64,000 bases of DNA from a virus (Duplodnaviria > Caudoviricetes): IMG/VR virus record IMGVR_UViG_3300042975_000096. The stretch is one strand, 5' to 3'. Both the position numbers and the translations under genes were made by a program. Below, piece after piece: positions 9,759 to 51,361 of this stretch (its first letter is position 1; every line of letters begins with the position of its first letter). A model generated the notes under the pieces. It saw nothing but the letters and a program-made list of their open reading frames with translations, did no database searches and was not told where the DNA came from.

Positions 9759-9789
9759 ATTTCAATTCACGCACCCGTATGGGTGCGAC
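9759..9789 (-). CRISPR. Solitary type I-C-like repeat, no leader, intergenic within an operon
   Basis: GTCGCACCCATACGGGTGCGTGAATTGAAAT, identical to array repeats. Confidence 0.9.
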
Positions 9790-9809: not shown

Positions 9810-9959
9810 TTATTTCAATTCAGTTTCAACGATTTTGAAATCCAGTTTCATTTCTTCATCCTGCAAAAGCATTTTCTTTGTTACATTCATTGTAAACAAA
9901 ACATTATCTTTTCCTTTTGCTTTAATTACATTTTTAATTTCACTCCAAGTAATAAACAT
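9810..9959 (-). CDS. 49-aa hypothetical protein (MFITWSEIKNVIK...)
   Basis: Promoter and RBS GGGGGGAG; below ORF-track cutoff. Confidence 0.65.
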   Translation of the reverse strand: MFITWSEIKNVIKAKGKDNVLFTMNVTKKMLLQDEEMKLDFKIVETELK

Positions 9960-16735: not shown

Positions 16736-18235
16736 CTGCTTTCCAAAACATAGACAAACATGGACATGTAAAATTTATCCATATTTATATTAATGTCTAA
16801 ATTTTTTAATTACTTTCGTCACCATTTGTATTCTGATATCAATTATTTAATACCACATTGACAAACTCTTAAAGTTTAAGGCGTAAGCCACGCCCTTTAC
16901 TAATAAATGAATTAATTAATTAATTCATTTATTAGTTAGCTAAAGCTAATAGATTCATTACTGCGTTATAATCTCTATCTGCGGTGAACCCACACTTATA
17001 ACATATATATTCATTATGTTTTGTTTTATGTCTTTTATTGCCTGACAAAGTGATTTTATCTTCACCTGTTTTTACATGTCCACAACAAGAACATCTTTGA
17101 GTTGATGGGTAAAATCTATCAGCTATAATTAACTTTTTTCCATACCAATTACATTTATATGTAAGCAGTTGTCTAAATAAACCAAAACACGACCTTTGCA
17201 AGCCTTTTGATGCTACATGTGTCATTTGCATATGTTTCACATCTAAATCTTCTATTACTATTGTATCATATTTATCTGTTAGCATAGTTGTGAATTTATG
17301 TAAAATATCATGGGTTAAGTTGCTTGCTTTTTCATAATCACGTTGAAGTTTGGTTCTCACTTTTAAGTAATTATTACTCTTGCAAGCGTTTTTCCCTTTT
17401 ATTATATGCTTTTTCGCTAACATTTTTTGATAATGTTTGATACGATTATAATAAAAGTTTAATTTCTTGGGTAAAACATTCAAATTACCATCAGTGTAAT
17501 TAAAATGACCTACATTTACATCTATTGCTGTTTTTTTATTTGTTAAAACTTTTGTTTCAACACTGGTTTTATAAGGTAATGAAGCATAATATTTATTATT
17601 GACTTTAGTCACACTAACTACTGTTAAATCGGCATCAAAATTTTTTGGTAAACCTTTGATTTTAATATTTTGCCATTTTTCTTGAATTTCTCTAGGCTTA
17701 TCTAATTTTAATTTACCATTTTTAATTGTAATTCTATCTGATTTGAAACCTTGTTTTGTATCTTTTTTGGTTTTGAATTTAGGTTTTCCCCAATCAAGCT
17801 GAGATTTGCTTAAAAAATGATTCCAAGCATTTCCCAAATCTAAAATTGCTTGTTGTAAAATTCTTGAAGAATATTTATATTGCCAATCTTGTTTATTTTC
17901 AACAAGTTCATTTCTTACAACACGTTCGTTAGGTGCTTTGTAAGATTTATCGATACAATGTAAATCATACATTTGATTCCATGTTTCTAAACCTTGATTC
18001 CAACAATATCTGCGATAGTCGCAAAGATTATCTAAAACCTGTTTCATATGTTTGCTTGGATAAAGTTTTACTTTGATGGTCTTTATTGTTTTCAATTATT
18101 TATTTTCCCCCCTTTTTTAAGTATATTTGAGTACACTTGCTTCTATAAATTAAATTAAATTATTTGTGGATAAATGTGTTTATGAGTATATTTTTATATG
18201 TTTGAACACATTTGTCTATATTTTTAGTTACTTAA
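16736..18235 (-). mobile_element. Non-autonomous tnpB-only IS607-like element
   Basis: AG dinucleotide at both junctions, subterminal ATAGACAAA/TTTGTCTAT motifs, no transposase. Confidence 0.75.
16932..18095 (-). CDS. tnpB: TnpB RNA-guided endonuclease
   Basis: RuvC AIDVN, IEDL, DRDYNA and CSCCG/CYKCG Zn finger. Confidence 0.93.
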   Translation of the reverse strand: MKTIKTIKVKLYPSKHMKQVLDNLCDYRRYCWNQGLETWNQMYDLHCIDKSYKAPNERVVRNELVENKQDWQYKYSSRILQQAILDLGNAWNHFLSKSQLDWGKPKFKTKKDTKQGFKSDRITIKNGKLKLDKPREIQEKWQNIKIKGLPKNFDADLTVVSVTKVNNKYYASLPYKTSVETKVLTNKKTAIDVNVGHFNYTDGNLNVLPKKLNFYYNRIKHYQKMLAKKHIIKGKNACKSNNYLKVRTKLQRDYEKASNLTHDILHKFTTMLTDKYDTIVIEDLDVKHMQMTHVASKGLQRSCFGLFRQLLTYKCNWYGKKLIIADRFYPSTQRCSCCGHVKTGEDKITLSGNKRHKTKHNEYICYKCGFTADRDYNAVMNLLALAN

Positions 18236-37523: not shown

Positions 37524-37667
37524 AACCCTCTTTTTTACAATCTTTAACTCTATACATATATTACCATATTATCGTTTATTTGTCAAGTTGTTTTTTATAT
37601 TAATATTTCAGAATATTATAAAATCTATAACACATAAAAAAAGAGAGGGGAATTAATCCCCTCTTAT

Positions 37668-38486
37668 TCATTTGATTACCTTACCTTTGTTTTCAGCCCA
37701 ATCCTCCAAATCCTTTACAGTGAACCACCCATAATTGTAAATGTCTTGTTCTTCAGGATTTAAGAAAAATACAATTTCCCCATTATCTTCTCTCTTAGGA
37801 GATAAAGCATAATATTCTTTTCCTGCCTTTTTCAGCTTTTCTTCAATCCCTGTATTTCTTGCTTCAACATGCAAATCATAATAGTCTTTATCCTGCTGAT
37901 ATACTTTATCAGCAGATTCTTTATCAAATGCTGATTTTTTCATAATAACAAGTCCACCATTTTTAAATGCCATTGAACCTGCTTGTCCAATAACGATGTC
38001 CAAATTATTAAATGCTTTTGCCAACATTTCCAAATCTTTTTTATGATTTTTATCAACCACAATTCCAAATCCACGTTCATCCCATGCCGTTCCGATTTCT
38101 TCTGCATGAACGTCTTTGGCAAACCAATTCAGATTTAATTCCATGGGTAGATTTTTTTCATAATCATTGAAGTAATCAACAACCAAAACATAATATGTAT
38201 TTTTACTTCTTTTGATTTTTCGAATCTTTAACTCTCGTGGCAATTTCGTGATTGCTCTTTTCTCAATACCAAAAATCGGTTCATAATCCTTCATACCAAA
38301 AAAGTCTTTGATTTTTTTAGTGATTGGATTGCCTGTTGCTTTTTCTTTCACTTCGCAAATGCCAAACATTTCTTTAATATGTGCAATACCAAACTCATGT
38401 TCAGCAACAAAATCTGCACCCAAATCTACGCCAATCATTTCATCATTTTCATCATATAGGAATTTAGCGTTTCTTGCTTTTCTCAT
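37668..38486 (-). CDS. Hypothetical phage protein downstream of a solitary CRISPR repeat
   Basis: 272 aa; FFLNP.EQ..YNYGWF motif. Confidence 0.85.
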   Translation of the reverse strand: MRKARNAKFLYDENDEMIGVDLGADFVAEHEFGIAHIKEMFGICEVKEKATGNPITKKIKDFFGMKDYEPIFGIEKRAITKLPRELKIRKIKRSKNTYYVLVVDYFNDYEKNLPMELNLNWFAKDVHAEEIGTAWDERGFGIVVDKNHKKDLEMLAKAFNNLDIVIGQAGSMAFKNGGLVIMKKSAFDKESADKVYQQDKDYYDLHVEARNTGIEEKLKKAGKEYYALSPKREDNGEIVFFLNPEEQDIYNYGWFTVKDLEDWAENKGKVIK

Positions 38487-38519
38487 TAGTCCAACCCCTT
38501 TTCATTTCATTATCTATTT

Positions 38520-38550
38520 ATTTCAATTCACGCACCCATACGAGTGCGAC
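38520..38550 (-). CRISPR. Solitary type I-C-like repeat variant between the YqeY gene and the 272-aa gene
   Basis: GTCGCACTCGTATGGGTGCGTGAATTGAAAT; stem kept by a G-U pair on the minus-strand RNA. Confidence 0.88.
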
Positions 38551-38586
38551 AAAATCATTAAGAAATTAATCATACAGGATTAAAAA

Positions 38587-39027
38587 TCAATTCAATTTTG
38601 CTTTGAGAATTTCAGAAGCCATTTTGCCGTCATATTGACCTGCATAATTTTCTTTCAGCTTTTTCATGACAATTCCCATTGCTTTTTTTGTTCTATCTGT
38701 TTCACTCAAATAAGATTCAATGATTGAATCCAATTCTTCTTTCGTTTTTTCAACAGGCAGAAATGATTCAATAACCTTTAATTCATGTTCAGACTTGCTC
38801 ACAACGTCTGTACGACCATTTTTCATTGCCGTTTGAATAACTTCCTGCGTTGTATGCTTCGCTTTCTGTAGAGCTTTTAATGCTTCTTCTTTGGTTGTTG
38901 CTCGATTTCCATTATTTTTTCCAATCATAACGATTTCAGAATATAACATCGATAAGAATCCTGCTTCTTCGTGATTTTTTTCTTTTCGTGCCTTATCCAA
39001 CATAGATTTAATTTCTTCTGTAACCAT
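38587..39027 (-). CDS. GatB/YqeY domain protein
   Basis: ARKEK...E.KVIESFLP...MGIVMKKLKE.YAGQYDGK. Confidence 0.85.
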   Translation of the reverse strand: MVTEEIKSMLDKARKEKNHEEAGFLSMLYSEIVMIGKNNGNRATTKEEALKALQKAKHTTQEVIQTAMKNGRTDVVSKSEHELKVIESFLPVEKTKEELDSIIESYLSETDRTKKAMGIVMKKLKENYAGQYDGKMASEILKAKLN

Positions 39028-39098
39028 TTTTACACTTCCCTTTATTTATTGTATTTTTATATTATCATATCTGCTAATATTTGTCAATCTTTTAAAAT

Positions 39099-39238
39099 GA
39101 AAAAAGAACGGGAGATAAAAACCGTTCTTTTCCATAGAGATAGAGTTATCAATTATTAGTAGACTTTTTCGTAAAAAGGGTAGAAATGACGAAAAAGTAC
39201 AATTACAATTTTATGCGAGGTGTTTATCAGCCTCATTA
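39099..39238 (-). ncRNA. Candidate ~140-nt sRNA with C/U-rich anti-SD loops
   Basis: Two tandem sigmaA promoters (39244-39272, 39318-39346), three hairpins, terminator, no credible ORF. Confidence 0.65.
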
Positions 39239-39357
39239 ATTACATTATATCATGCGTTAAGCATTTTGTCAACAACTTTTTTATCGTTATGTGTTTCATG
39301 CAATCTCTATGTTTTACATTATATATCACTTTATATAAAATGTCAACATGTTTTTCT

Positions 39358-49496: not shown

Positions 49497-49591
49497 TGTT
49501 GTACTCACGCACCCGTATGGGTGCGACTACAAAAAACACTTAAAGCACTTAGAAAAACAGATTTCAATTCACGCACCCGTATGGGTGCGAC
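49497..49591 (-). CRISPR. Mini-array 3: repeat 49561-49591, 33-nt spacer, 3'-degenerate terminal repeat 49497-49527
   Basis: Terminal copy ends GTGAGTACAACA instead of GTGAATTGAAAT. Confidence 0.9.
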
Positions 49592-51159: not shown

Positions 51160-51361
51160 TATTGCACTCACGCACCCGTATGGGTGCGACAAAACGCAAA
51201 TTTCAATTCACGCACCCGTATAGGGTGCGACTCACTGTTTTGTTATTTTTCATTCTTACACTAATATTTCAATTCACGCACCCGTATAGGGTGCGACTTC
51301 CGTATCTGTCCATGGTCTCGCCCCACTGTATTTCAATTCACGCACCCGTATAGGGTGCGAC
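51160..51361 (-). CRISPR. Mini-array 4: three 32-nt repeats plus a degenerate terminal repeat; spacers of 32, 34 and 9 nt
   Basis: Repeats 51330-51361, 51266-51297, 51200-51231, 51160-51190. Confidence 0.93.

Follow-up and report, generated by a model that had tools for sequence, protein, structure and literature searches.

A lone type I-C CRISPR repeat in a predicted bicistronic mRNA of a 430-kb phage: a Racr candidate of probable array-fragment origin

The locus was analysed within a window of 64,000 nt (the whole stretch of DNA under study), which is part of a 430,772-bp phage-like JGI metagenome contig located by the sequence of the 272-aa protein described below. Wastewater and bioreactor sludge were the source of the 20 public runs, belonging to 13 studies, in which the stretch was present. 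The window had a G+C content of 30.6%, all its genes were on the minus strand, and the usual order of a gene cassette was promoter (TTGACA-17-TATAAT), UTR, gene, terminator and 18-bp palindrome. No DNA relative of the window was found in the phage collection searched, and no Cas protein was detected among the approximately 20 ORFs of at least 180 aa scanned in the window.

The repeat under study is located between two genes. The first encodes a YqeY-domain protein of 146 aa (39027..38587, minus; Pfam PF09424, E 6e-23) and the second a protein of 272 aa (38486..37668, minus), of a family essentially restricted to huge-phage contigs. The YqeY-unit promoter (TTGACA-17-TAATAT with TG; 39087..39059, minus) is preceded by a terminator at ~39130..39100, and an intrinsic terminator at 37664..37644 (minus) closes the bicistronic unit. 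The gap between the YqeY stop codon and the ATG of the 272-aa gene was 100 nt, with 36 nt (38586..38551) before and 33 nt after an intact type I-C CRISPR repeat of 31 nt, GTCGCACTCGTATGGGTGCGTGAATTGAAAT (38550..38520, minus). Both spacings had been reported in an earlier sequence-only reading of this DNA and proved exact when the coordinates were checked. The 33-nt 5' UTR of the 272-aa gene (38519..38487, minus) holds the Shine–Dalgarno (SD) motif AAAGGGGT at 38501..38494, 8 nt ahead of the ATG; the ribosome-binding site is thus inside these 33 nt, where that reading had placed it. This UTR resembles the start-site-proximal part of the standard promoter/UTR module of the phage, and the promoter itself is missing.

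The repeat had also been described as solitary, which is correct in that only one complete repeat is present, but a handle-like remnant, TGAATTGATTT (38594..38584, minus), identical at 9 of 11 positions to the 3' handle of the repeat (TGAATTGAAAT), lies exactly 33 nt upstream. The remnant overlaps the YqeY stop codon, and the last two YqeY codons (AAT TGA) are outside the stretch homologous to sister phages. Between the remnant and the repeat there is a 33-nt segment of spacer length (38583..38551, minus), with no match anywhere. A CRISPR array or mini-array at the locus itself was rejected, given the single complete repeat, the lack of a hairpin in the 11-nt upstream remnant (9/11) and the absence of a leader.

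The repeat (GUCGCACUCGUAUGGGUGCGUGAAUUGAAAU) folded as ..(((((((....)))))))........... with -10.3 kcal/mol, that is, a stem of 7 bp (38548..38542 / 38537..38531, minus) with a GUAU tetraloop, a 2-nt 5' overhang and an 11-nt 3' overhang, the handle (38530..38520), ending in ATTGAAAT. This architecture is that of type I-C repeats, taken here as a length of 31–32 nt, a 2-nt 5' overhang, a G+C-rich stem of 7 bp, a loop of 4–5 nt and an 11-nt 3' overhang, the form given for substrates of Cas5c in PMC8524198. The 31-mer matched four other sites of the window with 3 mismatches (28/31), against 0 expected from 100 shuffles, and at least 11 repeats, all on the minus strand, were present in the window once loop variants were allowed. 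The degenerate pattern GTCGCACYC-loop-GGGTGCGTGAATTGAAAT was found in regular arrays at 17 genome loci and 25 metagenome loci, and arrays of the same repeat class occurred in Clostridia, Lactobacillales (Loigolactobacillus) and other genomes and metagenomes. The exact 31-mer had 0 matches in IMG/VR and in the metagenome collection and no exact match in genomes, the array-consensus 31-mer had 0 matches in IMG/VR, and no Rfam family was found at the repeat.

Three differences, all of them transitions, separated the repeat from the array consensus: one C>U in the stem, which keeps a G.U pair, and two in the loop, with the handle untouched. The probability of such a structure-sparing pattern is ~0.05 if the changes were random. 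The nearest natural array repeat, from a Clostridia MAG (L017), showed 2 mismatches and the same GTAT loop. Additionally, a 95-nt wastewater metatranscriptome contig (run X16) contained two repeats and a 34-nt spacer without match to the window; one of them agreed with the 38520 variant at all of 29 nt, and 3 differences were seen in the other. An array mixing these variants therefore exists in the habitat and is present in an RNA library, and it could belong to the host or be another array of the phage. The GTAT loop of the Clostridia array, together with the exact variant in the RNA contig, indicates that the repeat is a genuine variant and not a decayed copy.

Two other identities were considered for the repeat. 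An intrinsic terminator or attenuator was rejected, as the hairpin is followed by UGAAUUGAAAUAAAUAG and the terminator scan found none in 38487..38586. A promoter starting from the TTGAAA of the repeat was also rejected, with no -10 box at a usable spacing. The 3' end of the repeat, ATTGAAAT (38527..38520), agrees at 7 of 8 positions with the consensus -35 context ATTGACAT (e.g., L080:1645-1652), a microhomology that could favour recombination between repeats and promoters.

With respect to transcription, the 100-nt gap had been said to contain neither a separate promoter nor a terminator, and the promoter scan (at least 10 of 12 positions) and the terminator scan were in agreement with this. 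Since transcription would start at the one promoter upstream of YqeY and meet its first terminator only beyond the 272-aa gene, both genes are predicted to form a single transcription unit with the repeat, which is in sense orientation. The nearest promoter is ~510 nt upstream of the repeat, with YqeY in between, and is thus outside the 250 bp upstream in which a promoter is expected for the selection of Racr candidates (PMC10651486). Promoters were missing from 11 of the 80 gaps of at least 60 nt in the window, two of these 11 being the lone-repeat sites. Just before the YqeY promoter, the stretch 39099-39346 (minus) shows two perfect 12/12 promoters (39346 and 39272), then ~140 nt without ORF and then a terminator; it is probably a small RNA unit. 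Owing to this terminator, the two strong promoters do not drive the unit of YqeY, repeat and 272-aa gene. Metatranscriptome contigs (X15, X16) covered both genes in pieces, none of them spanning 38352..38517; contigs cannot show RNA ends or cleavage.

The 272-aa protein gave no match in Pfam, PHROGs, NCBIfam, PADLOC or the PDB sequence profile search and had no relative in IMG/VR, and its only INPHARED match was a protein of a 595-kb uncultured phage with 28% identity. The AF2 model was confident (pLDDT 85, pTM 0.79); no neighbour was found for it by Foldseek (PDB, BFVD), the best VIA-align Z was 5.1, and the ESM Atlas returned nothing usable. The family, found almost only on huge-phage contigs, has 14 invariant residues, including E29-H30 and W135. 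On contigs L034 and L035 a family member is within a few kb of tRNA_bind, RtcB and DUF3228/SET genes, and on L034 of an RNA ligase gene too. According to the model and these neighbours, the protein may represent a new fold with an RNA-repair context.

Traces of transposable elements were observed around this gene. In the L026 haplotype of the locus, the SD (…AAAAGGGGT) of a 274-aa gene and its start region (TTATGGTAATG) have an insertion of ~1.8 kb (L026:3553-5365) exactly between them. The insertion contains an ORF of 485 aa, in which a TnpB-related domain was weakly matched (TIGR01766, E 4e-5), and then ~240 nt of non-coding sequence; it looks like an IS605/TnpB-type element separating the gene from its ribosome-binding site. 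On the sibling contig L082 (10-1153 and 2547-4389) a fragment of TnpB (OrfB_IS605/Cas12f1-like_TNB) and a long stretch of non-coding sequence are located just upstream of a ~86% identical 272-aa gene, and a Y1 transposase downstream of it. A TnpB gene is also present in the window, at 16932-18095. The neighbourhood of the 272-aa gene appears to be an IS200/IS605 hot spot.

The window contained four mini-arrays (11200>10903, 19740>19501, 49800>49497 and 51570>51160, minus), and each of them has a promoter to itself and a conserved ~170-nt leader. The spacers of the arrays of this phage are 32–36 nt long, and the mini-arrays and the lone repeat at 38520 share handle and stem. Two of the mini-arrays run directly into protein genes with no terminator between, a SprT-like gene (ATG 49468) and a DHH gene (ATG 51125); their terminal repeats (49497-49527 and 51160-51190, minus) keep the hairpin and have degenerate handles (GTGAGTACAACA and GTGAGTGCAATA), in contrast to the intact handle before the 272-aa gene. 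A second lone repeat (9789..9759, minus) precedes its ATG by 54 nt. At 9822..9812 (minus), 22 nt before this repeat, an exact 11/11 handle TGAATTGAAAT ends a 49-aa ORF and is the sole exact copy in the window outside full repeats. With handle copies upstream of both, the two lone repeats have a common shape, namely handle, short segment and full repeat, and at both of them the upstream junction coincides with the Cas5c cleavage position. This shared shape and junction could reflect an unusual hairpin-directed or RNA-templated entry of array pieces into phage genes.

The repeat was retained unchanged in all 15 contigs with an identical YqeY or 272-aa protein, which correspond to 9 very similar haplotypes. 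Among these haplotypes the variable columns were 1.4% in YqeY, 2.1% in the 272-aa gene, 0 of 31 in the repeat and 8 of 69 in the flanks; as the flank changes amount to two clustered events and the coding background is ~2%, a test of selection has no power. The L026 haplotype contains ~20 extra nt, plus the 1.8-kb insertion, 3' of the repeat. It retains an extended -10 box (TGGTATTAT) directly 3' of the repeat; the window haplotype is without those ~20 nt and resumes near the ATAGAT motif, which follows the -10 box in the promoters of this phage.

In all sister phages, with YqeY 80–88% identical, the repeat was absent downstream of YqeY. Behind the 88% identical YqeY of L080/L081 come a terminator, a palindrome (operator), a promoter and an unrelated gene, and behind the 82% identical one of L064-L079 a hairpin and then a 180-aa gene. 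The alignment with the sister phages holds firmly as far as ...AA(A/G)TTG and is lost beyond it, the homology ending 6 nt before the YqeY stop. This breakpoint is the start of the 9/11 handle motif TGAATTGATTT, which supplies the YqeY stop codon. Outside real repeats, the minus strand has ~61 handle matches with at most 2 mismatches per 64 kb, and the chance of such a match at a spacing of 32–36 nt from the repeat is ~0.005. On the other side, 272-aa relatives whose proteins are 57%, 67% and ~86% identical are preceded by an upstream region of their own, in which no repeat is present, and the 57% relative (L037) by a clear terminator and promoter. The distant homologues on L035 (208-kb contig) and L034 (471-kb) abut or overlap the preceding gene, and that on L033 starts 64 nt after it, also without repeat. 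The repeat was absent upstream in all five 272-aa relatives with a readable upstream region.

Since homology breaks at these points and the relatives have no repeat, the repeat is most likely a mini-array fragment fusing two gene cassettes, and the four mini-arrays of the phage, which have the same handle, make repeats available as recombination donors. The comparison points to a recombination origin rather than to a designed regulatory element. The explanation that we favour, tentatively and with slightly less than even confidence, is that an array fragment replaced a cassette module and left a Racr-like sponge and processing site embedded in an mRNA. A fragment consisting of a repeat 3' end, a 33-nt spacer and one complete repeat would derive from the phage's own cas-less type I-C mini-array, and recombination would have inserted it between the YqeY and 272-aa cassettes in place of the terminator, operator and promoter module. 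With this module replaced, the 272-aa gene would now be transcribed only from the YqeY promoter and its mRNA would carry a complete sense repeat. Against this explanation, no host with the exact repeat and no cas genes were found in the collections searched, the 9/11 handle remnant could be due to chance, the 33-nt "spacer" matches nothing, with no donor array seen to carry 38583..38551 as a spacer, and the invariance of the repeat spans 9 haplotypes that are too close to show selection.

The same evidence of origin also fits a neutral recombination scar, which we regard as rather unlikely: the repeat would be a passenger of an array-mediated rearrangement, with no relevant Cas interaction, and would be tolerated since transcripts from the YqeY promoter still read through into the 272-aa gene and ensure its expression. 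The confinement of the repeat to one very shallow lineage, with no conservation above background, agrees with this, as does the fact that one copy adds little to the RNA of four promoter-driven arrays. However, the three structure-sparing transitions and the intact handle (~0.05 if random), with no visible decay, speak against it, the GTAT loop occurs in the Clostridia array and the exact variant in a repeat-spacer-repeat contig of a metatranscriptome, and the flanks vary while the repeat is invariant, although this last point is weak evidence.

Under the favoured explanation, the fate of the transcript would depend on Cas5c. This enzyme recognises the stem and the 3' overhang, its cut falls behind the last nucleotide of the stem, and an 11-nt 5' handle is left, with 5'-OH and 2',3'-cyclic phosphate ends at the stem base (PMC8524198). 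By this rule, the predicted cut in the repeat is between 38531 and 38530. Every feature that Cas5c needs is kept, so processing and a Racr-like loading of Cas proteins on the mRNA are plausible. In a host with type I-C Cas proteins, Cas5c would cut after G20 of the repeat; the YqeY mRNA would end in a hairpin and the 272-aa mRNA would start with a genuine 11-nt 5' handle, which would nucleate the loading of Cas5c/Cas7 over the SD and the AUG. On the cut RNA the SD is at +19..+26 and the AUG at +34..+36, inside the 42-nt span past the handle covered by seven Cas7 subunits of 6 nt each, as given in the literature that PMC8524198 cites. It can fairly be inferred from this geometry that the 272-aa mRNA would be tagged with the handle and have its SD and AUG under the Cas7 footprint, in line with the sequence-only reading, in which Cas7 could cover the ribosome-binding site. 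If the 272-aa gene were affected in its translation, this would be a side effect and not the action of a designed switch.

The repeat is a lone one on a phage-like contig with no cas genes among the scanned ORFs of the window, which is the setting sought for Racr and SRU elements. Racr elements are also sought by the presence of acr genes within 1 kb; here the neighbours are the YqeY-domain protein and the 272-aa protein, the latter without family, structure or defence-library match. In the Racr model the RNA of a lone repeat forms aberrant Cas subcomplexes, and RacrIC1, co-transcribed 11 nt behind acrIC5, inhibits type I-C interference (PMC10651486). A Racr-like decoy made from mRNA, which the sequence-only reading had offered as its second option and for which RacrIC1 is a direct precedent, is plausible on these grounds. 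The promoter being ~510 nt off, behind a protein gene, far less repeat RNA would be produced than by the four strongly promoted arrays, and the share of the decoy may be negligible.

The cleavage products bear on another reading, in which the repeat would be a Cas5c-dependent mRNA processing site, or natural insulator, uncoupling the stability and translation of the two cistrons; the YqeY mRNA would gain a protective 3' hairpin and the 272-aa mRNA a 5'-OH end. The ends left by Cas5c at the stem base, 5'-OH and 2',3'-cyclic phosphate (PMC8524198), are in accordance with it. So is the loss of the YqeY terminator, which leaves the repeat hairpin as the only remaining 3' structure, and the two mini-arrays that run into the SprT-like and DHH genes make a repeat followed by a gene a recurring layout in this phage. 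Qi et al. (2012) reportedly used engineered Csy4/Cas6 sites as mRNA insulators. Those sites, like the repeat at 38520, place a CRISPR repeat between cistrons; there the arrangement is synthetic, whereas here a natural use is hypothetical. The insulator is nevertheless improbable, as the handles are degenerate before the SprT-like and DHH genes and the benefit would hinge on the host having the system. Since the handle before the 272-aa gene is intact, these layouts differ in the feature that decides Cas loading. That the intact handle is functional and the 272-aa mRNA is a natural Cas-sensing transcript, with translation and stability set by Cas5c cleavage and Cas7 loading of the host, is a conjecture to which we give a low probability.

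The sequence-only reading had proposed a switch sensing the Cascade of the host, that is, a purpose-built sensor in which Cascade subunits on the handle-tagged mRNA would shut off or tune the translation of the 272-aa gene according to Cas abundance. Its support is the geometry, with SD and AUG within 42 nt after the handle. This proposal was not supported: the repeat is not tied to the 272-aa gene elsewhere, being absent in the five relatives with a readable upstream region, and the spacing is variable. The distance of one spacer length to the ATG, which that reading had stressed, is altered in L026 and is 54 nt at the second lone repeat. In the minimum-free-energy fold the SD is base-paired with UUUAAUCCU (38584..38576), with the repeat in between; this fold is, however, no better than those of shuffled sequences (z -0.45). 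The accessibility of the SD in the uncut RNA was 0.53, ordinary beside a median of 0.48 for 77 genes, and it was lower and not higher (0.19) in the cut fragment; for these reasons a switch based on RNA structure was rejected. In addition, the 272-aa protein has no detectable CRISPR link. We consider a purpose-built sensor quite improbable.

A guide unit, crRNA-like or of the Cracr type, was also considered, and the target of the host Cascade would then be a toxin gene, a cas promoter or a rival phage. The guide would be formed either by the degenerate handle, the 33-nt segment and the repeat or by the repeat and the downstream 33 nt. In its succession of a degenerate repeat, a spacer and a repeat the locus is similar to crlRNA/Cracr genes, of which type I-C examples are known (bioRxiv 10.1101/2024.10.29.618823). 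However, the upstream remnant has no hairpin, so that Cas5c cannot make the 5' end of the first guide, and the downstream 33-mer disagrees with the L026-type sibling in its first 5 nt, so that the seed of the second would mismatch. Neither flanking 33-mer nor any mini-array spacer matched the window or the fetched loci with up to 6 mismatches. The upstream 33-mer and the 22-nt core of the downstream one had 0 matches in IMG/VR, and two spacers from RNA contigs had no match in the window. In 243 kb of host-type loci, searched for a Cracr target, the sole match with a PAM and at least 9 nt (TTT + 10 nt, L042) was at chance level and outside cas genes. A guide unit is therefore regarded as highly improbable.

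Among the closest known systems is RacrIC1/acrIC5, from a prophage of Bifidobacterium pseudocatenulatum (Camara-Wilpert et al. 2023, PMC10651486), which, like the locus at 38520, has a single type I-C repeat without adjacent cas genes, placed just behind a protein gene and transcribed with that gene as one RNA. On the other hand, RacrIC1 ends its operon, 11 nt after the Acr gene, whereas the 38520 repeat is between two genes of unrelated or unrecognised function, 33 nt before a start codon; and RacrIC1 is a shown anti-CRISPR, while the 38520 repeat is a candidate. Viral SRUs (Faure et al. 2019), as they are presented in the papers that cite them (PMC10651486, PMC11656645), are likewise isolated viral repeats copying a repeat of host type. 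They are typically described there as immediately 3' of their own promoter; the 38520 repeat is ~510 nt away from its promoter and has, in addition, a handle-only partial repeat upstream. Cracr (bioRxiv 10.1101/2024.10.29.618823) shares with the locus the succession of a degenerate repeat, a spacer-length segment and a good repeat, but at this locus no target was found for the segment and the degenerate repeat has no processing hairpin. Cas-less mini-arrays are known from SPV1/SPV2, according to the review in PMC11656645, and this phage likewise has four such units. In comparison with these mini-arrays, the 38520 repeat has no leader, no promoter of its own and no second complete repeat, and no normal crRNA would be released from it. 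Cas-less arrays in huge phages are said to have been described by Al-Shayeb et al. (2020).

The repeat at 38520 is thus a candidate viral SRU, or Racr, of type I-C, with a probable origin as an array fragment; it can probably still attract Cas proteins of the host, an already known ploy of phages rather than a novel principle. It adds a case in which a solitary type I-C repeat is embedded in a predicted phage mRNA, the phage (430 kb) having several cas-less arrays besides. What is most useful is the result on origin: the comparison with sister phages indicates that lone repeats can arise as fragments of a phage's own arrays that fuse neighbouring cassettes. If this is general, some bioinformatic "Racr" candidates may be by-products of recombination and not dedicated anti-CRISPR genes, and CRISPR repeats would be a source of mosaicism in huge-phage genomes. 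If the Cas-sensing reading were true, CRISPR repeats would be general control elements of mRNA in this phage, together with the arrays that form the 5' UTRs of the SprT-like and DHH genes.
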